From a virus (lineage: Duplodnaviria > Heunggongvirae > Uroviricota > Caudoviricetes): a stretch of DNA of 12,320 nt. The position numbers and the translations under genes are program-made. The stretch is from positions 1 through 12,320 of IMG/VR virus record IMGVR_UViG_2851955134_000006, one strand, 5' to 3'. Every line of letters begins with the position of its first letter. Within the stretch, counting starts at the first letter, position 1. Of this stretch, positions 1 to 12,320 are shown one piece after another. A model generated the notes under the pieces. It made no database searches. It saw only the letters and a list, made by a program, of their open reading frames with translations, and had not been told where the DNA came from.

Positions 1-1230
1 ATGAGCAGAGCACTTAACAAACTGAGCGATACACAGCTAAGGAAAATCAACGGCACACCCGCCCAAAAAACAGTCTTTCTTAATGACGGTGGAAACCTGA
101 CCGTCAGGCATTCAACCAGCGGCCTTTTAACCTGGTATTTCACCTACAGGGCCGGAACGGGAAGGGGAGCACGACCGGAACGGATTAAGCTGGGAAATTA
201 TCCTGATCTGAGCCTGAAAGCAGCCAGGGAAAAAGCCGCACAGTGCCGCGCATGGCTGGCTGAGGGGAAAAATCCACGTCATGAGATGAATTACACCGTA
301 CAGGAAGCGTTAAAGCCTGTAACGGTTGGCGATGCGCTCACCTACTGGCTTGAGTCGTACGCAAAGGAAAACCGTGTGGATTATGACCCACTGAAAAAGC
401 GGCTAAATAATCACGTAATACAGCACATTGGCGCTATGCCGCTGGATAAATGCGAGCTACGGCACTGGCTGGCCTGTTTTGATCGGGTGGCAAAGCAAGC
501 CCCTGTTTCCGCCGGATTCCTGCTACAGACATGCAAACAGGCGCTTAAGTTCTGCCGGAAGCGGCGCTATGCAATCAGCAACGTTCTTGATGATATGAGT
601 GTTGCTGACGTTGGGAAAAAACCGGATATAAGTCAGCGTGTCTTAAGTAACAAAGAACTTGGCGAATTATTGCAGGCACTGGACAAAAAAATATTTTCCC
701 CTTACTACGTCGCACTAATCCGCCTCCTGATTGTCTTCGGAGCCAGGACAGTAGAACTGAGGCTATCGGAGATCGGGGAGTGGGATTTTACCGAAATGCT
801 CTGGACCGTTCCGAAGGAGCACAGCAAAACGAAGGTAGCCATATTCCGGCCCATACCGGAAGCGATACTGCCGTTCGTCACGCAGCTGGTGGAGCAGAAC
901 AGGCACACGGGCTTATTGCTGGGGGAAGTGAAACAGGAGGCCAGCGTATCGCAGTATGGAAGATTAGCGCACAGGAGGCTTAAACACCCTCACTGGTCAC
1001 TGCATGACATCCGGCGCACCTTTACAACGATGCTGAACGATTTAGGCGTGGATCCTCACGTCGTGGAGCAGCTTACAGGCCACCAGATGCCAGGAATGCA
1101 GCGAGTTTATAATCATTCCCGTTATCTGGATGCGAAACGCAATGCGCTGGATATGTGGGTGGAGCGGTTGGAGATACTGGCGGGAGCACATGAAAACGTA
1201 ACCACGCTACCAGTAGCCAGAAGAAAATAA
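1..1230 (+). CDS. int: Site-specific tyrosine integrase, P4-like family
   Basis: 409-aa ORF. N-terminal arm-binding-like region (LSDTQLRK...LNDGGNLTVRH...WYFTYR), C-terminal catalytic region with R..HxxR..Y-type signature (LHDIRRTFTT...GHQMPGMQRVYNHSRY). ATG sits at base 1, so the true start could lie upstream of the window. Confidence 0.9.
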   Translation: MSRALNKLSDTQLRKINGTPAQKTVFLNDGGNLTVRHSTSGLLTWYFTYRAGTGRGARPERIKLGNYPDLSLKAAREKAAQCRAWLAEGKNPRHEMNYTVQEALKPVTVGDALTYWLESYAKENRVDYDPLKKRLNNHVIQHIGAMPLDKCELRHWLACFDRVAKQAPVSAGFLLQTCKQALKFCRKRRYAISNVLDDMSVADVGKKPDISQRVLSNKELGELLQALDKKIFSPYYVALIRLLIVFGARTVELRLSEIGEWDFTEMLWTVPKEHSKTKVAIFRPIPEAILPFVTQLVEQNRHTGLLLGEVKQEASVSQYGRLAHRRLKHPHWSLHDIRRTFTTMLNDLGVDPHVVEQLTGHQMPGMQRVYNHSRYLDAKRNALDMWVERLEILAGAHENVTTLPVARRK

Positions 1231-1604
1231 TTTTTTTCGTGTTTTTTCAGTATGCGCATACTGGATAAGTGCACAGATACAACGGCGAACAATGTGAAAC
1301 AACGTGGAACAACCACGAACAAGAGGCCGAAAAATATACAGATTTATAAGTTGCTGATTTTTAATGCTCAACTGGTTTTTTATACATTAGCGAATAACGC
1401 TTTAAATAGTGAGAAAAAAGGCATGAAACGAGATTTTATGCCTTTGCATAATACTGAATTAAAATGTTTTTTATTAAAATTACCCCGTTTCTGTAAAATA
1501 CCCGCCACCAACATTTGCCAACTCTGAATCACCCTGACACAATCAGACACATACCAACGCAATAGAACACGAAATAACTCTTTAAGAAACGAAAGGGGGC
1601 AATA

Positions 1605-1793
1605 GTGTTAAGCACTGATCGCTTTATACGTGAAAAAGAATGCGAAAAGCTAACAGGCCTTAGCCGCTCATGCCGCTACCGCCTGGAAAAGGCCGGACAA
1701 TTCCCATCACGGCGTAAGCTGGGCGGTCGTTCCGTTGGCTGGTCTTTATCCGAAGTTCTGGCATGGAAGGAAAGCTGCGAGGCAGTTCACTAA
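1605..1793 (+). CDS. alpA: AlpA-family (prophage CP4-57 regulatory protein-like) HTH transcriptional regulator / excisionase-like protein
   Basis: 62-aa ORF with GTG start and SD-like aaggggg 6 nt upstream. Sequence pattern TGLSRS..YRL...GQFP...LGGRSVGW..SEV..W is typical of AlpA/Xis-like MerR-type HTH proteins, and its position directly after int is typical of P4-like islands and Gram-negative PICIs. Confidence 0.8.
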   Translation: MLSTDRFIREKECEKLTGLSRSCRYRLEKAGQFPSRRKLGGRSVGWSLSEVLAWKESCEAVH

Positions 1794-1934
1794 AAAGACT
1801 GGCGGCACACAGCCGCCACCCATCCACTAATACAGAGATTTAACCATGAAGACTGGATATACGCCCGAACAGGGGCGGGGCTTCGTTCGGCCTTGTGAAA
1901 CTGAAAAACAACAAAATCGCGGTTTTTCAGACAT

Positions 1935-1962
1935 AAAAAAAGCGGCCCCGATAAGGAGCCGC
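1935..1962 (-). terminator. Putative rho-independent terminator for the minus-strand two-gene module, possibly bidirectional
   Basis: Stem gcggcccc / ggagccgc (8 bp, one mismatch) with loop gataa, preceded on the plus strand by an A7 run, which reads as a T7 tract after the stem on the minus strand; lies about 160 bp downstream of the minus-strand ORF ending at 2121. Confidence 0.45.
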
Positions 1963-2120
1963 CTTTCTGAACAATTAACCTACTGCGCAAAAAATGAATA
2001 TGAGCAGTGGGATTATATCAACCGTGTGGCGAAGCGCCACAATTGCCGGATAACGGGCAAAGAAAAGGCCACCTGTCACGGTGGCCAATGTGATCAGTGT
2101 CCTGGCTTGCTGGTGGATTG

Positions 2121-2312
2121 TCAGCCAGGTGGGCGGTTTTTGTTTGCTTTTAAGCGCCGAGGGTATTTCTCGACAAAAGGATCAAGGGCGAACTTATCAG
2201 GAACTTTAAGATTTTCAGTGCGGGTTAATGCCTTATTTATTTCCCTGCGGGTTTTCTCACGCTGGCGCATGATAATTGATAATGCTTTATTTTGTAGTTC
2301 CTGGTTATTCAT
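2121..2312 (-). CDS. Hypothetical small basic protein (63 aa)
   Basis: ATG at 2312-2310 on the minus strand with SD aaggtga 7 nt upstream; the ORF track extends it to a GTG at 2321. Lys/Arg-rich (MNNQELQNKALSIIMRQREKTRREINKALTRTENLK...). Sits downstream of the RHH gene on the same strand. No recognisable family. Confidence 0.4.
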   Translation of the reverse strand: MNNQELQNKALSIIMRQREKTRREINKALTRTENLKVPDKFALDPFVEKYPRRLKANKNRPPG

Positions 2313-2369
2313 AATTATCACCTTTAAAACAATGCGCCGCAGTACCTCACACCACGGCGCTGATAGTAA

Positions 2370-2549
2370 TTATTCTGATTCTTTGGCCTTGCGGCGCTGG
2401 CGGCGTTTGATCTCGCCTTTTGCGGCAGTAACTAAAAAACCAGCGGTACTTTCGCCAGGTTCTTTAAGTTGCTCAATATCATCCATTACTTCATGTGGGA
2501 TTCTGACAGTTGTCATTTGTGATTTTGCGTTCTTTGCACCAGTTGCCAT
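2370..2549 (-). CDS. Ribbon-helix-helix (CopG/Arc/MetJ-like) DNA-binding protein, candidate repressor
   Basis: 59-aa ORF starting MATGAKNAKSQMTTVRIPHEVMDDIEQL, an RHH-like N-terminal beta-strand motif (TVRIP.E....IE.L). Strong SD aggaga 7 nt upstream of the ATG on the minus strand. The ORF track's 118-aa version begins at an upstream ATG with no RBS. Confidence 0.6.
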   Translation of the reverse strand: MATGAKNAKSQMTTVRIPHEVMDDIEQLKEPGESTAGFLVTAAKGEIKRRQRRKAKESE

Positions 2550-2610
2550 TTCTGGATCTCCTAAAAATTGGTGTATGTCAGTATACGCAAAAAAAATGAT
2601 AAAAAAAGGC

Positions 2611-2661
2611 TTGAAGTGTATTTCACCAGTGAGTAAATTAAAAAGCAAAGGTGAAATACAC
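2611..2661 (+). promoter_or_regulatory. Divergent control region: candidate rightward sigma70 promoter (TTGAAG -N17- TAAATT) overlapped by a perfect 12-bp inverted repeat operator
   Basis: gtgtatttcacc at 2616-2627 and its exact reverse complement ggtgaaatacac at 2650-2661, separated by 22 bp. The left arm lies in the promoter spacer and the right arm just downstream of the -10. Located between the minus-strand RHH gene and the plus-strand early operon. Confidence 0.45.
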
Positions 2662-2742
2662 CTGAAAGAGCAACGCCCCGCAGTGCTCGCAACACATGCA
2701 GGGCGTCTAACCACCAACGATAGCAAGAGTATCGAGGTAGCT

Positions 2743-2946
2743 ATGAGAAATCATACCACACACCCGCAAGGGCGGGACTCGCACAACCTGAATAAATACA
2801 TCTGGCGTTTTATCGCCCTGAGCACGGCACAACCGCGCGTAATTCACATCGAGGCCACCAGCGAACAGGAAGCACGTCAGCAATCTCCTGATGGCTGCGT
2901 GATGGTATTCGCCGCCCGTATTCGTCAGGAGGTGTGCCATGATTAA
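2743..2946 (+). CDS. Hypothetical protein (67 aa), first gene of the early operon
   Basis: ATG at 2743 with SD gaggt 5 nt upstream. The stop overlaps the next gene's start (ATG 2939, TAA 2944-2946), implying translational coupling. It is the C-terminal part of the long open frame 1846..2946, which is otherwise judged non-coding. Confidence 0.5.
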   Translation: MRNHTTHPQGRDSHNLNKYIWRFIALSTAQPRVIHIEATSEQEARQQSPDGCVMVFAARIRQEVCHD

Positions 2947-3307
2947 CCTGTCACTTACCGATCTTAACCGCGTTCAGTTTCGTGAGAAATTTACCGGACA
3001 GCTACTCGTCAATGTGGAGAACGGGCGCATAGTGCGTAATTATCACCTGCCGGATGGTGCAATTGCCGGAAGCGTTGAAGCATTGCTTGAACTGGCGGAA
3101 CGTGCGCGACTGATTAAGCCGTCAACGAACCATCACGATGATGATCTGCATTTTACCGGATGTATGGTGAGTCACTACGAAAACGGCGTCGAGGTATCCT
3201 GCGAACAGCTACGCACTGATTGCTGTTTTGGCACTCTGCCGGAATTTATCGAATTGCTGACCAGTTGCGGATATCAGGTTATTCAGGGGGTGCGCCATGT
3301 GCAATAA
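2939..3307 (+). CDS. Hypothetical protein (122 aa)
   Basis: Strong SD aggaggtg 4 nt upstream of the ATG; coupled to flanking genes. No recognisable family. Confidence 0.6.
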   Translation: MINLSLTDLNRVQFREKFTGQLLVNVENGRIVRNYHLPDGAIAGSVEALLELAERARLIKPSTNHHDDDLHFTGCMVSHYENGVEVSCEQLRTDCCFGTLPEFIELLTSCGYQVIQGVRHVQ

Positions 3308-3749
3308 CATCCGTCCGGACGCAGCCGCCGCCGCACTCACTACTCTGATGCACGCGCTTATTGATATTTCTGTTATTGCAGACATGGCGCATAAGCACGC
3401 CACCAGAGAGACGGAATATACAGGGGAAATAATCCCCCATTCGCTGGCCTACGCACAGCTTACCGCTGATATGGCACTGAATGAAGCCAAAGCCATCCTG
3501 ATTGCTGATTGTGAAAATGGGGGGGTTATGCGTGATGATCGTTTTAATGCCCTGAAACAGGAATTTTCCGGCGTTCCTGATAATGCGGCTGATGCGCTTT
3601 CGTCAATGCCAGAGCTTATTAGAGCGGCTTTTTTCTTACTTTCCACGAGAGAATATAAATCAACGGGGCTTGATGTACTGAATATCGCCGCCGATTATGC
3701 TGATTTCGTGACAGAGGTTATTTTAAGAAAAACGACGGACGGGGATTAA
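3297..3749 (+). CDS. Hypothetical protein (150 aa)
   Basis: ATG overlaps the upstream gene's end, with SD caggggg upstream. Protein-like composition. No recognisable family. Confidence 0.6.
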   Translation: MCNNIRPDAAAAALTTLMHALIDISVIADMAHKHATRETEYTGEIIPHSLAYAQLTADMALNEAKAILIADCENGGVMRDDRFNALKQEFSGVPDNAADALSSMPELIRAAFFLLSTREYKSTGLDVLNIAADYADFVTEVILRKTTDGD

Positions 3750-3750
3750 T

Positions 3751-3984
3751 ATGCGTGATATTTACCTAGAAACAATAGACCGCGCATTTAGTGCCATTGT
3801 TTACGCTGAAGGTATGTACGAAATATTGCAAATGTATCTGGATACATTTGGCGATAATGAGCGTGATGTAAAGAATGCGCGGATTATTAAATCTCTGATA
3901 ACTCTCCTTGAACCTGTAATAACAGAGTTGCAGGAAATAGACCTATTGCACGACAGATATAAAGAACAGCACACCGGAGAATAA
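3751..3984 (+). CDS. Hypothetical protein (77 aa)
   Basis: Starts 2 nt after the upstream stop, with SD gacgggga upstream. No recognisable family. Confidence 0.55.
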   Translation: MRDIYLETIDRAFSAIVYAEGMYEILQMYLDTFGDNERDVKNARIIKSLITLLEPVITELQEIDLLHDRYKEQHTGE

Positions 3985-3989
3985 AAATA

Positions 3990-4289
3990 ATGAAACTTAA
4001 ATATTCTGGCTTTACTGCCAGCGGCCCCGCTCGGCCTGAAATCCGCCCCGGCGATATTTTCAAAGATAACTACGGCGGCACGGTAACAATTAAAAGCGTG
4101 GAGGAACGTCGCGTAACTTACCGCCGTGATGGCTACGAATATGACTGCGTGATGCCTGTTTATCAGTTCCGGCGTGATTTTTCTCTGGTACAGAACGCAA
4201 CACGCGGTAAGCCCACCAGCAGGGAAAAAGCACGGGAAAATATTAAGAAAATAAAAAGCATGCTCAGCGCATCCAGAGGTAAAAAATGA
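3990..4289 (+). CDS. Hypothetical protein (99 aa), basic C-terminus
   Basis: SD ccggaga upstream; its stop overlaps the start of the replicase gene (ATGA at 4286-4289). Confidence 0.55.
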   Translation: MKLKYSGFTASGPARPEIRPGDIFKDNYGGTVTIKSVEERRVTYRRDGYEYDCVMPVYQFRRDFSLVQNATRGKPTSREKARENIKKIKSMLSASRGKK

Positions 4290-5692
4290 AACTGGCACCG
4301 AACGTAAAACTGTTACCGAAAGATAAACACACTGAGGCGGTTATTTTTGCGGGTGATAATGCTCACTCCTTTGCAGAACATTACATGATTGCACAGGCCA
4401 AAAAAGCAGGCGATCCCATCCCTCCGGTTTACCTGGGCCGTTATCAGTTAAGCGAACTGGACAACTTACAGATTGTTGATGAAGGACGATACAGGGCAAA
4501 GGTCATACGCGCCGGAAACCTGGACGATATGCAGATGCTGACCATTGCCACCAAACTGGCGATCGCAGGTGTCCAGGAAGCACGGTTACTTTCAGAGAAT
4601 TTCGAACTGCTGGAGGACTGGAGCGAGCAACTACCGCGGCTTAAAGAAACCTGGGAACGCGGGGAAAGTCTGGTCATGAATGGTGGAAAGCGAAAAATCA
4701 CACTTCCCATCTCATGGGGTTCTGAGGGATTCGACGCGCAGCAAAGCTACGTAATTAAGGGGCTTATTCCGGCTGAGTCATTATGCAGCACCTACGGGGC
4801 CAGCGGTTCTTATAAATCGTTCCTGGCTATTTCCTGGTCGTGCCATGTTGCCACAGGTATGGCATGGGGAGGCCGCAGGGTAAGTAAGGGCGCTGTTATC
4901 TATATCGCTGGCGAAGGCAGTATGGGCGTAAAACGCCGCGTTAAGGCGTGGGAGATAACCCATGACAAGGTGGTTACAGATTTGTGCATCATTAACGCGC
5001 CGGTATTCCCCGCATCGCCTGACTATGTGGAGCAGGTTATCAGGACTGCCGGACTTGTTAAGAGCAGAACGGGCGAAAATGTGCCGCTGATTGTGATCGA
5101 CACGCTGGCCCGTTGCTTTGGTGGGAATGATGAAAATGATTCCCGTGATATGGGCGCATTTATCCAGGGGTGTGACGCGATAAAGCAGGCTACAGGGGCC
5201 ACGGTGCTGGTGGTTCACCATTCCGGCAAGGATGAAACAAAGGGGGCGCGTGGTTCCAGCGCATTCCGTGCCGCGCTTGATGCAGAGTACCGAATCAGCC
5301 GGGAAAATTCAGACGTTACAGCACTGGTGGCGGCGTGTACGAAGATGAAGGACGCAGAGGAGCCAAAAGAAAGCGCATACGACCTTAAAAGCGTGGAGGT
5401 GTTCACCGATACAGATGGCGAAGAAATTGTGTCTATGGTGGTGATTGACGTTCCCCGCGCCCCTGCTGAACTGGAGCGCATCGAGGAAGCAGGCAACAAA
5501 TCGGAGAATCACGCCGCGCTATGGCAGTGCATCAGAACGCGGACGGCACACAAAGAGCCATGCACTATCGCCCTTCTCCGCGACGATATGAAAAAGCTGG
5601 GGTATGAGATGAAGCACTTCCGGCGCTGGCTGTCCAAGCTGGAAAAAGACGGCGTGATTTGTGTCGATGGGGATGATGTTTACCCACTGTAA
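4286..5692 (+). CDS. Replication initiator ATPase / helicase, RecA-like P-loop NTPase (RepA/AAA_25-like), satellite replicase
   Basis: 468-aa ORF with a P-loop-like segment (LIPAESLCSTYGASGSYKSFLAISW), a Walker B-like hhhhD segment (PLIVIDTLARCFG) and a VVHHSGKDETKG segment typical of RepA/DnaB-type ATPases. Immediately followed by an iteron array. Confidence 0.8.
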   Translation: MKLAPNVKLLPKDKHTEAVIFAGDNAHSFAEHYMIAQAKKAGDPIPPVYLGRYQLSELDNLQIVDEGRYRAKVIRAGNLDDMQMLTIATKLAIAGVQEARLLSENFELLEDWSEQLPRLKETWERGESLVMNGGKRKITLPISWGSEGFDAQQSYVIKGLIPAESLCSTYGASGSYKSFLAISWSCHVATGMAWGGRRVSKGAVIYIAGEGSMGVKRRVKAWEITHDKVVTDLCIINAPVFPASPDYVEQVIRTAGLVKSRTGENVPLIVIDTLARCFGGNDENDSRDMGAFIQGCDAIKQATGATVLVVHHSGKDETKGARGSSAFRAALDAEYRISRENSDVTALVAACTKMKDAEEPKESAYDLKSVEVFTDTDGEEIVSMVVIDVPRAPAELERIEEAGNKSENHAALWQCIRTRTAHKEPCTIALLRDDMKKLGYEMKHFRRWLSKLEKDGVICVDGDDVYPL

Positions 5693-6265: not shown

Positions 6266-6508
6266 ATGAAGGTAAACCACAAAAAGACAGATCACCGCGC
6301 CATTGACCTTACAGAGCACTGGCTGAGGGTGGCGATAAAAATCATCGACCGCAACGCGGGAGAAGGATACGCGAAGGAACATCCCGAACTGATTAGCGCA
6401 TTCATGACAACGGCAGCTGCAAACTTTTCCACGCTGACAGAACGGGAGATTGCCGAAGCGCAACAGGTGACAACCATCAACGTTAAAACCAGTGAGGTGG
6501 AATCATGA
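6266..6508 (+). CDS. Hypothetical protein (80 aa)
   Basis: SD ggag 6 nt upstream; its stop overlaps the SSB start (ATGA). Confidence 0.5.
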   Translation: MKVNHKKTDHRAIDLTEHWLRVAIKIIDRNAGEGYAKEHPELISAFMTTAAANFSTLTEREIAEAQQVTTINVKTSEVES

Positions 6509-6915
6509 CAGCACAGATAGCGGCTTACGGGCGGCTGGTGGCTGACCCACAGTTAAAGACCACCAGCAAGGGTACACAAATGGCGATGGCGAGTATGGCT
6601 GTCCCCCTGCCGTGCAGCCAGGCAGATGACGGAACGGCGACGATGTGGTTATCCGTCCTGGCGTTTGGCAGACAGGCCGACGCACTGGCAAAACACCAGA
6701 AAGGCGAACTGGTGAGCGTGGCGGGTAACATGCAGGTGAGCCAGTGGACCGGACAGAACGGGGAAACGCGGCAGGGCTGGCAGGTTATCGCAGACAGCGT
6801 AATCAGTGCGCGGACAGTGCGACCGGGCGGAAAAACACGCAAAACCACAGGCACACAGGGTAATCAGCCACCAGCGGGAGACGATGACCCTTACGGTGAT
6901 GATATTCCGTTCTGA
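6505..6915 (+). CDS. ssb: Single-stranded DNA-binding protein (short, phage/plasmid-type SSB)
   Basis: 136-aa ORF with an OB-fold-like N-terminal region, a Gly/Gln/Pro-rich linker and the hallmark acidic SSB C-terminal tail DDDPYGDDIPF. SD gaggtgg upstream. Confidence 0.8.
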   Translation: MTAQIAAYGRLVADPQLKTTSKGTQMAMASMAVPLPCSQADDGTATMWLSVLAFGRQADALAKHQKGELVSVAGNMQVSQWTGQNGETRQGWQVIADSVISARTVRPGGKTRKTTGTQGNQPPAGDDDPYGDDIPF

Positions 6916-10272: not shown

Positions 10273-10345
10273 CATAAATAGCGAAAAACCGCGAGGTCGA
10301 CGCCCCGTAACGGGCCATAATTCCAGGAAGGACCCGACGACACCA
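10273..10345 (-). other. Second lambda-like cos site (cos-2), inverted relative to cos-1
   Basis: The reverse complement of 10273-10345 reads ggtgtcgtcgggtccttcctggaattatggCCCGTTACGGGGCGTCGACCTCGCGgtttttcgctatttatga. A 25-bp core is identical to cos-1, with flanking similarity on both sides (gggtcctttccgg versus gggtccttcctgg; cgttttcgctatttatga versus gtttttcgctatttatga). Cohesive-end equivalent at 10294-10305. Confidence 0.7.
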
Positions 10346-10369
10346 GACTATCAGAGCGATGGGCGCACA

Positions 10370-10651
10370 ATGACAGAAGCCGAACTACTGGGATTAATCC
10401 GCCGCGTTACCGGAATCAGCCAGCAGCATGACGAACAGGCCACGCAGCCGGACAGCGTGACCGCCGAAAATTACGCGTGTGTTGTTGCTGAGGTGATGCG
10501 CCGTGATGGTATTGAGCTTAACGGCGTGGATATGCGCAACATACGAACCAGAGTCCTTGAGTTGCTGGCATACCGTCGCCGTTCTCAACAACGGAGGGAG
10601 AGCGCGAAAAATACTTACCAGTGGAAGAAGCCGGAACGACTGCGTACGTAA
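10370..10651 (+). CDS. Hypothetical protein (93 aa)
   Basis: ORF with a weak SD; followed about 70 bp later by a plus-strand hairpin with a T tract. Arg-rich C-terminus. No recognisable family. Confidence 0.4.
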   Translation: MTEAELLGLIRRVTGISQQHDEQATQPDSVTAENYACVVAEVMRRDGIELNGVDMRNIRTRVLELLAYRRRSQQRRESAKNTYQWKKPERLRT

Positions 10652-10721
10652 TACGTACGGACATCGAGATAAAGACGGTTTAACCATCCATTAAAAATCG
10701 ACGTGATTTTGTGCTTTCCGG

Positions 10722-10745
10722 ATGACGTGGCCAACGTCATTTTTT
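10722..10745 (+). terminator. Putative rho-independent terminator
   Basis: Stem atgacgt / acgtcat, loop ggcca, followed by ttttt. Confidence 0.5.
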
Positions 10746-10967
10746 AGCGAAAAATTCTGATTAAGGTCATTGGCTGAATGGTCATAATGACCACTCCTAC
10801 AGAACAGGTAAAGCCCACCAGCCTGATTAAAGGTTAACCGGAAAAAAAGCCAGGTATCAATCTCGATATGTGGATCCCCATATCGACAGCAACGCCCCCT
10901 TAAAATTACCCGCCTTTATATTTCTTGTGCCTATTTGTTCCACGTTGTTTCATACAGTGCACCGATC

Positions 10968-10991
10968 GGTGTAGTTAATGGTGTAGTTAAT
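10968..10991. repeat. Perfect tandem duplication of a 12-bp unit (ggtgtagttaat x2), preceded by the palindrome accgatcggt
   Basis: Read directly: 10968-10979 and 10980-10991 are identical; the palindrome is at 10961-10970. Confidence 0.6.
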
Positions 10992-11084
10992 TTGCGATTT
11001 TTGGCACTTTTTTTAGTGTAAGTTGTTTAATTAAATCAATACGTTATTGAAAATAAGTTATAGATATATCCCATTTATGACTCC

Positions 11085-12320
11085 TTATTTCTGCCAGGCA
11101 AGTTGATAAAGCATGAGTGCCAACGTTTTGACCCCTTCGGCAAGGTCGGTAATATTGGTGCGTTCCGCCGGGTTATGGCTGATCCCATTGATGCTGGGAA
11201 TGAAAATCATGCAGGTTGGTACGCGAGGCGCGAAAATTTGCGCGTCGTGCCCGGCACCACTGTGCATCACCCGGTAATTCAGTTTTTCGCTTTCACACAA
11301 TTCTGTCAGGGTGGCGACCAGGTCCTTATTCATCGGCACGGGTTCTTCGTCCATCCATAAATCGATATCAATACCAATGTCCATTTCATCGCAAATCGCC
11401 CGCATGTCGTTTTCTAACTGCTGAGTGAAATCGCGCAGCACGGCGGCGTCGGTATGACGACAATCAATGGTGAATGTGGTTTTACCCGGCACCACATTCA
11501 CCGTATTCGGGCGCGGCTCCACCTTACCAAAGGTCAGCACCAGCGGGTCGCCCATCTTTTTCGCTTTTTCGATCGACTGATGGCAAATGCGACTGAAAGC
11601 GTAAACTGTATCACGACGGTAACCCATCGGCGTGGTGCCTGCATGGTTTGATTCGCCGTTCAGCGTCACCGTATAGCGACGTTGCCCGACAATTGCATTC
11701 ACCACGCCAATTGATTGCCCATTACTTTCCAGCACACAGCCCTGTTCGATATGCAGTTCGACAAAGGCTTTAATATCCTGACGCGGAGTTAGCGGGGCGT
11801 CCGGCAGAGTAAATCCGCAAGCCTTCATCGCATCGACAAAACTATTTCCTTTGGCATCACAGATATTCCGCACGTCGTCAGGATTCGCCAGCCCAAAGAT
11901 ATTTTTACTGCCCCAGAAAACATACGGGAAGCGGCTGCCTTCTTCTTCCGCCATCGCCACCACTTCAACCGTACGTAACGGCGCGCCGTATTGCCTTTTC
12001 AACCAGTCAATTGCCAGCCACGCCGCCAGCGCGCCGAATTGCCCGTCGAGGTTACCGCCGTTAACCACGGTATCGATATGCGAACCGCTCAGAACCACTT
12101 CCTGTGGATATTCGGTGCCACTCAGGCGACCGTATAAATTCCCCACTTCATCGAAACGTGTTTCCAGCCCGCTTGCTGCCATTCTTTTTTTAAATTGCTG
12201 CTGGGTTTCCAGCCATTCCGGCGAATAAAGTAAACGGGTCATCCCACCCGTTGGGTCAGCGCCAAAAGAGGAAAGCCAGGGCAGCGTTTCTTCTATGGCT
12301 TGACGGAAATGTGTAATCAT
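11085..12320 (-). CDS. allC: Allantoate amidohydrolase (M20 peptidase / hydantoinase-carbamoylase family), host chromosomal gene
   Basis: Complete 411-aa ORF with ATG at 12320-12318. M20-type metal-binding motifs (SGSHIDTV, DGQFG, EEEGSRF, HNPAE). Full-length match to my recollection of enterobacterial AllC (MITHFRQAIEETLPWLSSFGADP...). Confidence 0.8.
   Translation of the reverse strand: MITHFRQAIEETLPWLSSFGADPTGGMTRLLYSPEWLETQQQFKKRMAASGLETRFDEVGNLYGRLSGTEYPQEVVLSGSHIDTVVNGGNLDGQFGALAAWLAIDWLKRQYGAPLRTVEVVAMAEEEGSRFPYVFWGSKNIFGLANPDDVRNICDAKGNSFVDAMKACGFTLPDAPLTPRQDIKAFVELHIEQGCVLESNGQSIGVVNAIVGQRRYTVTLNGESNHAGTTPMGYRRDTVYAFSRICHQSIEKAKKMGDPLVLTFGKVEPRPNTVNVVPGKTTFTIDCRHTDAAVLRDFTQQLENDMRAICDEMDIGIDIDLWMDEEPVPMNKDLVATLTELCESEKLNYRVMHSGAGHDAQIFAPRVPTCMIFIPSINGISHNPAERTNITDLAEGVKTLALMLYQLAWQK

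Follow-up and report, generated by a model that had tools for sequence, protein, structure and literature searches.

The stretch of DNA analyzed here (the window; 12,320 nucleotides) begins at the ATG of an integrase gene, int, and carries allC at its right end. At this right junction, the following features are found:

11085–12320, minus strand: allC, encoding allantoate deiminase, 411 codons (ORF list; annotation in LH50-c and K-12 relatives)
11087–11085, minus strand: TAA stop codon of allC (read from the sequence)
11081–11086, minus strand: AAGGAG, the ribosome-binding site of allE (read from the sequence; identical in K-12 before the annotated allE start)
11036–11074, minus strand: chimeric ORF of 12 codons plus stop, with the translation MGYIYNLFSITY

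A preliminary description of this region had reported an AAGGAG motif directly after the allC stop codon, a 6-nt spacer and an ORF that closes after 12 codons, and had proposed that this ORF is the remnant of allE. Motif, spacer and ORF are present at these coordinates, with the ATG at 11074–11072, but AAGGAG, which is kept at the right junction (attR), does not follow the stop codon and instead shares 2 nt with it. The ORF reads ATG GGA TAT ATC TAT AAC TTA TTT TCA ATA ACG TAT TGA. Since its ATG GGA TAT comes from allE and AllE of K-12 starts with MGYLNN, the ORF is indeed an allE remnant, although only in part: codons 1–3 are allE sequence, while codons 4–12 are attP DNA of an integrated island. 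The similarity of codons 4–6 (ATC TAT AAC) to those of allE (TTA AAT AAC) is a resemblance only, as positions 11041–11065 are island DNA that partially mimics allE codons 4–6. Among islands inserted at allE, the tail of the ORF shows the non-synonymous variants T/R and Y/H (ACG/AGG/ACA and TAT/CAT).

A megablast search with positions 10600–11300 as query matched 5348 of 5426 complete E. coli genomes. Almost all matches span only query positions 458/467–701, corresponding to window position 11057/11066 onward, and the features annotated there are allC and allE. The allC region is 96–100% identical to E. coli genomes and represents the chromosomal DNA to the right of the island. In more than 5300 island-free E. 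coli genomes, allC and allE are contiguous; since the sequence from 11066 onward matches the allC/allE junction of these genomes, the junction pattern is not due to chance.

Alignment to such island-free relatives, as suggested in the preliminary description, resolves the breakpoint to a 7-bp identity block:

11066–11072, no strand: ATATCCC, the putative overlap for strand exchange (present in attB, attL, attR and attP)
11058–11065, plus strand: TTATAGAT, putative core-type Int half-site C (in register with TGATAAAA of the EcCICFT073-type attP)
11073–11080, plus strand: ATTTATGA, putative chromosomal core-type half-site B' (same register; identical in the attB of K-12)

Island-free E. coli reads ...TTATTTAA-ATATCCC-ATTTATGACTCC at this position, and the window reads ...TTATAGAT-ATATCCC-ATTTATGACTCC; in longer context, ...GACGTTATTTAA-ATATCCC-ATTTATGACTCCTTA in K-12 corresponds to ...AAGTTATAGAT-ATATCCC-ATTTATGACTCCTTA in the window. 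In K-12, the allE ATG is the reverse complement of a CAT across the end of ATATCCC. Because the window departs from K-12 to the left of this block, only ATG GGA TAT of the short ORF belongs to allE. The block is bounded on both sides by mismatches between attB and attP, and the difference at the base on each side confines the exchange to these 7 bp. Seven base pairs are the canonical overlap length for tyrosine recombinases. Thus, the island does end here, as had been proposed, but the breakpoint lies at 11066–11072 and not at 11040–11060. A boundary at 11040, where the similarity to the phoQ-site island GF4 stops, was also considered and rejected, because islands of the tqsA and allE types are alike up to 11065 and this sequence is part of attP.

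The core-type half-sites were assigned by register. The core of the phoQ type is a perfect inverted repeat with a 7-bp spacer, TGATAAAA-GGACATA-TTTTATCA; in the same register, the allE-type attP is TTATAGAT-ATATCCC-TTTTATCA and attB is TTATTTAA-ATATCCC-ATTTATGA. Half-site B' includes two bases of the allE start codon. T1, A3 and A7 are common to all 12 tabulated half-site instances, an agreement that is suggestive only, since the sequences are AT-rich. Both these half-sites and the arm sites described below are putative assignments.

The window starts at the ATG of int, and the left junction (attL), about 215 bp upstream of int, lies outside it. A matching att sequence and the missing part of the gene had been suggested to lie upstream of int, and both were found there in relatives. 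LH50-c is the only complete genome that shares this right end. It reads ...TTATTTAA-ATATCCC-TTTTATCAATTAG, followed by a 174-bp arm and int, with the rest of allE running leftward. An attL that joins TTATTTAAATATCCC to TTTTATCAA, together with a full-length allE frame, is present in LH50-c, TUM1886, E300010, 2012C-4502 and AST19. An exact-protein look-up retrieved five further contigs (L015–L018 and L020) that carry exactly the Int of the window and the same attL adjoining allE, glxK and ybbY. One of these, L020 (read archive SRR3112331), is 100% identical to window positions 1–4230 and contains attL and the rest of allE; the attL of the window's own molecule was inferred from this identical contig. 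Taken together, allE adjoins allC in the absence of the island, and in six island-carrying genomes or contigs the rest of allE is located about 215 bp upstream of int, confirming that the allD-allC-allE operon is split. An associated rearrangement, which had been considered as well, is not needed to explain this arrangement: it corresponds to a clean site-specific integration that leaves the remaining allE frame intact.

The joined form of both arms was found in a metagenome scaffold that the look-up of the exact Int protein also retrieved (L019; ENA ERZ28618673 scaffold_5566), where the right arm is connected to the left arm with the core at positions 1067–1073. Its order, P arm ...TTAATTAAATCAAT-ACGTTATTGAAAATAAGTTATAGAT-ATATCCC-TTTTATCAATTAG...int, is the attP predicted from attL and attR and is compatible with excision. 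Its presence indicates that the island occurred in that sample as an excised circle, as a concatemer or in a tandem array.

To describe the island side of the junction, we compared ten islands, six located at allE, two at phoQ and two at tqsA. The following elements were delimited:

10908–11040, plus strand: P arm of attP, ending in TTAATTAAATCAAT (11027–11040; right ends aligned by eye)
10918–10992, plus strand: 75-bp block with a direct repeat in the P' arm beside int, 81% identity (blastn of L019 and L020 against the window)
10968–10991, plus strand: tandem doublet of GGTGTAGTTAAT, probable arm-type Int sites (perfect copies at 10968–10979 and 10980–10991)
10961–10970: 10-bp palindrome ACCGATCGGT (read from the sequence)
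11041–11072, no strand: 32-bp site-specific attP segment, ACGTTATTGAAAATAAGTTATAGAT plus ATATCCC (ten-island comparison)

The P arm is conserved in all ten islands; in E300010, AST19 and L012 the similarity begins at ACCCGCCT. Within the 75-bp block, three TTGTNNC repeats (10925, 10935 and 10945) precede the GGTGTAGTTAAT doublet, which in every relative also lies 22–45 bp before the ATG of int. In tqsA-type islands, GGTGTAGTCACT repeats are located beside int instead, and 16 of 17 fixed Int differences fall into residues 1–56, the Arm-DNA-bind_3 domain. This covariation of the repeats with Int residues 1–56 supports the assignment of the doublet as probable arm-type Int binding sites. The doublet is present on both arms, and Int has an Arm-DNA-bind_3 domain. 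The island of IHE3034 (cspD-clpS), with a 75%-identical Int and a different core, carries the same arm repeat doublet on both arms. In the island of RM13514 (yicC-dinD), Int is unrelated and the arms are different. The preliminary description had placed the tandem repeat and the palindrome right at the junction. They are located 75–105 bp from the crossover, however, and the repeat is part of an attP arm; a role as att core or duplication scar was rejected, since islands at other sites have the doublet too and a further copy of it lies beside int. In most of the relatives compared, the palindrome is not perfect (GCCGAACGGT, ACCGAACGGT, AACGATCGGT), and it is therefore probably incidental.

Some further observations concern these arms. 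The three TTGTNNC repeats show a 10-bp phasing directly upstream of the doublet on both arms (10925–10953; P' arm, L001 3838–3867), occur as three TTGTTCG copies in the IHE3034 island, and may be bound by AlpA, by an excisionase-like factor or by Int. The tqsA island of GF60 (L005, ~4950–4975 and ~20300–20325) is a chimera with GGTGTAGTCACT beside int and GGTGTAGTTAAT on the right arm, unlike EcCI042, which has TCA-type repeats on both arms (GGTGTAGTCACT, with GGTGTAGTCATT as second right-arm copy). The chimeric island may be impaired in recombination, or its Int may be tolerant. For EcCIDI14 (IS110 transposase site), the 'att site core' listed in Table S1 of PMC6092414, CGGTGTAGTTAATGGTGTAGTTAATT, is the arm repeat of this family, which lies near both ends of every family island; the true crossover was therefore probably not identified.

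The non-coding sequence that precedes the minimal P arm (10672–10907, about 235 bp) is 84–98% conserved in many islands with different cargo, but replaced in E300010, AST19 and L012; this region has no Rfam match. It includes, between the last ORF and the P arm, a non-coding 24-bp near-palindrome (10863–10886; TCGATATGTGGA/TCCCCATATCGA, 92% complementary), which is partly conserved in the right ends of capsid-forming islands (L012). An Rfam scan of 10300–11300 at E ≤ 1 gave no match, and a promoter and terminator scan of the junction gave promoter matches only inside allC, at background level, and no terminator.

The genes of the element indicate the family to which it belongs:

1–1230, plus strand: int, tyrosine integrase of 409 aa at the left island end (Pfam Arm-DNA-bind_3, Phage_int_M below the cut-off, and Phage_integrase)
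1605–1793, plus strand: regulator of the alpA family (Pfam Phage_AlpA, E = 5e-18; annotated as AlpA in relatives)
4286–5692: helicase of the AAA_25/RepA type (Pfam)
6505–6915: SSB (Pfam)

A gene of the alpA family is a hallmark of E. coli phage-inducible chromosomal islands (PICIs). In agreement with PICI gene order, int and then alpA are located at the left end and all large ORFs lie on the plus strand and are directed rightward. The element has its own replication module and a size of about 11.25 kb, in the range of 8–15 kb used to recognize such islands, without lysis or tail genes among the ten ORFs scanned. The only structural Pfam matches in these ten ORFs are a lambda E-like capsid and a lambda D-like decoration protein; because these are its only head genes and terminase and portal are missing, the island is of the classical EcCICFT073 type. 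Blastn places 7558 of the 11,072 island bases on the CFT073 locus that contains EcCICFT073, with 85–91% identity. Based on these comparisons, positions 10908–11080 are very probably the attR junction of an 11.25-kb PICI of the EcCICFT073 family. Between alpA and the replication genes, an ORF of 366 aa (1846–2946, plus strand) has no Pfam match; this region differs among similar islands (LH50-c, GF4, L017, L018), suggesting a variable accessory slot.

Use of this site is recurrent but rare: the attL junction at allE was detected in at least 12 of 5426 complete E. coli genomes. An IMG/VR scan revealed one further attR in a contig but no attP form. Exact-pattern scans of 185,579 species-representative genomes gave no match for attR or attP and two chance matches for attL in Bacteroidota MAGs. 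Identical junctions are present in six sequenced islands with three types of packaging module and in the five further contigs, and ATATCCC is the identity block common to attL, attR and the empty attB. Besides classical PICIs, the allE site is occupied by full capsid-forming PICIs and by islands of a type that has only one large capsid gene.

Site-specific integration into a dedicated site has to be weighed against other ways to arrive at such a junction. That the arrangement is ancestral, or that allE was removed by deletion or rearrangement and not by an insertion, hardly needs to be entertained. Nothing was found in favor of it, although the window by itself, with attL outside, would be compatible with it: allE directly follows allC in more than 5300 genomes, and a complete allE frame is found beside int in every island-bearing relative, including the contig identical to window positions 1–4230. 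We also consider it highly improbable that the 12-codon ORF is a functional small gene, maintained by selection as a micropeptide or coupling ORF. It has a strong Shine-Dalgarno sequence and an ATG directly after allC in all allE-site islands examined, and it would be translated whenever allDC is expressed. However, its Shine-Dalgarno sequence and first nine bases are the allE initiation region, and the rest is the attP core segment, so that its conservation is explained by recombination. Moreover, its tail residues vary among islands as described above, and no Rfam or other signal was found.

Somewhat more weight, though still little, is given to an off-target event, in which a tqsA- or phoQ-specific PICI inserted into a pseudo-attB in allE without any dedicated site. 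The rarity of the site (12 of 5426 genomes, compared to roughly 1000 genomes with related int genes or right ends) and the lack of the junction in all species-representative genomes would fit such an event; moreover, the allE segment equals the tqsA segment save for the overlap, and the lineage probably began in this way. But the island's own attP carries the allE overlap ATATCCC, as seen in scaffold L019, while after an accidental event with a tqsA-type attP one of the junctions would show the tqsA overlap. In addition, the same 32-bp segment and the same junctions occur across three packaging modules and with Ints differing by up to 44 residues. These last points speak against an off-target event.

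How this site is selected was approached by the comparison of the ten islands. The 32-bp segment sits between the conserved P arm and the chromosome, and the left arm always begins with TTTTATCA. In ten of ten islands the segment tracks the site: it is the same in all six islands at allE, and different ones are found at phoQ (2/2) and tqsA (2/2). The allE segment resembles the tqsA segment over the first ~26 nt and departs from it in the overlap, the last 6–7 nt. The integrases do not follow this pattern. The Int of the window differs from that of the phoQ-site island GF4 in 8 of 409 residues and from that of the allE-site island E300010 in 40, and Ints of allE-site islands differ from each other by up to 44 residues. 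No protein determinant of the site emerged: only A314T separates the allE from the phoQ set, and Ints of the tqsA type share the allE state. An Int allele found together with a site need not be able to use it, since alleles may swap between integrated islands by homologous recombination.

These data raise the possibility, which we put forward tentatively, that target choice is encoded almost entirely in the 32-bp attP segment, chiefly in its 7-bp overlap, and not in the integrase. The allE specificity appears to derive from a tqsA-type attP in which ATATCCC took the place of the overlap AACAGCA. Most likely, a target overlap would have been captured after rare integration at a secondary site, as in the saf (site-affinity) mutants of lambda, in which a changed overlap reportedly redirects site choice (Weisberg et al. 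1983 and the lambda Int literature). If true, these integrases would be naturally retargetable by editing 7–32 bp of attP, and the allE site would represent a specificity of recent evolutionary origin that turns ureidoglycine aminohydrolase off in a reversible manner. The ten islands represent a clean natural data set of related tyrosine integrases gaining targets via small attP changes.

In the proposed mechanism, Int would have recombined the attP of the island, in the order P arm with arm-type repeats, core TTATAGAT-ATATCCC-TTTTATCA, P' arm and int, with a chromosomal attB spanning the allE start codon. Exchange within the 7-bp ATATCCC would generate attR (10908–11080, in the window) and attL (beside int, outside of it). 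The former retains the allC stop codon, the allE ribosome-binding site and ATG GGA TAT, which are now joined to island DNA, so that the frame ends after 12 codons in total; at attL, allE is left without promoter linkage and ribosome-binding site, and its ATG is changed to AAG.

The sequences on both sides agree with these steps. At attR, the allDC transcript ends in the 12-codon chimeric ORF. At attL, the former start codon is AAG, preceded by an in-frame TAA and without a Shine-Dalgarno sequence. The remaining 258 allE codons are intact in every lysogen examined, but the next in-frame ATG is codon 117, and before it only a CTG at codon 15, again without a Shine-Dalgarno sequence, is available. 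A promoter scan found no outward promoter able to drive allE at the attL of LH50-c. Nevertheless, the PGAP annotation contains an allE of 247 aa that starts at this CTG.

From this we infer that an integrated island would keep AllE below useful levels and that the operon would be restored by excision. If AllE is lost upon integration and regained by excision, the system would fit gene integrity dependent on an integrative element. Lysogeny at the allE site removes the start codon of allE and separates the gene from allDC; as long as the island stays integrated, carriers are therefore predicted to recover nitrogen from allantoin less well under anaerobic conditions. For annotation, a 247-aa "allE" with a CTG start beside an integrase gene should be regarded as a disrupted gene. 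As a side observation, another gene of the allantoin regulon is interrupted by an internal stop in two of the six annotated lysogens with an island at allE (E300010 in allC, L007 29577–30812; AST19 in allW, L011 10758–12212), a count for which there is no baseline rate; these stops could reflect relaxed selection after the loss of allE, or coincidence.

In phage lambda, the 7-bp overlap must match between the recombining partners and is flanked by imperfect inverted core sites, and arm-type sites on both arms are bound by the N-terminal domain of Int. The att sites described here are comparable with respect to the 7-bp overlap, the putative inverted core sites and the repeats on two arms. In contrast to lambda Int, the Int of the window belongs to another clade (P4/CP4-57-like, with Arm-DNA-bind_3), and its sites were derived from comparison and not from footprints.

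Eight E. coli PICI sites are listed in Table S1 of Fillol-Salom et al. 2018 (PMC6092414): ycfD-phoQ, tqsA, yejM-luxR, cspD-clpS, lysR-smrA, IS110, yicC-dinD and frmR-thiM. Neither the table nor the text of that paper contains allC, allE or ylbA (PMC6092414), the TIGER 2020 paper and its accessible supplements do not mention an allC/allE site, and full-text literature searches retrieved no paper pairing a PICI with allC or allE. Our junction analysis of GF4 (phoQ) and GF60 (tqsA) independently recovers the published cores GGACATATTT (ycfD-phoQ) and ATAACAGCA (tqsA).

EcCICFT073, the PICI of CFT073, occupies the ycfD/roxA-phoQ site with the core GGACATATTT (PMC6092414). It resembles the window island in gene order, size (~11.3 kb), P and P' arms and arm repeats, and the two Ints differ in 23 of 409 residues. 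The 32-bp core segments are different (GGCTTG..TGATAAAA-GGACATA in EcCICFT073, ACGTTATT..TTATAGAT-ATATCCC in the window), and therefore the chromosomal site differs as well. Insertion at the phoQ site leaves phoQ intact, whereas insertion at the allE site removes the start codon. EcCI042 is located at tqsA with the core ATAACAGCA (PMC6092414), and tqsA is a candidate for 'regulated gene integrity' (Mageeney et al. 2020; PMC7192596). EcCI042 shares with the window island the family, nearly identical first ~26 nt of the 32-bp segment and the interruption of a host gene, but differs in the overlap (AACAGCA instead of ATATCCC), the N-terminal domain of Int and the arm repeats (GGTGTAGTCACT). Moreover, its insertion lies inside the tqsA coding region, at about codon 48, and that of the window island at the allE start codon. 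Capsid-forming PICIs (cf-PICIs) typically carry a set of capsid, protease, portal, HNH and terminase genes (bioRxiv 10.1101/2022.09.08.507074). At the allE site, this set is found in TUM1886, 2012C-4502, AST19 and L012 together with the same int and att module; the window island, in contrast, has no terminase or portal gene. Compared to these systems, the mechanism is the standard integration by a tyrosine integrase, and the satellite family is known. What is new is the evidence that the 32-bp segment, and not the Int sequence, tracks the target, and the site itself: allE is a ninth chromosomal attachment site beside the eight listed for E. coli PICIs, defined to the base.
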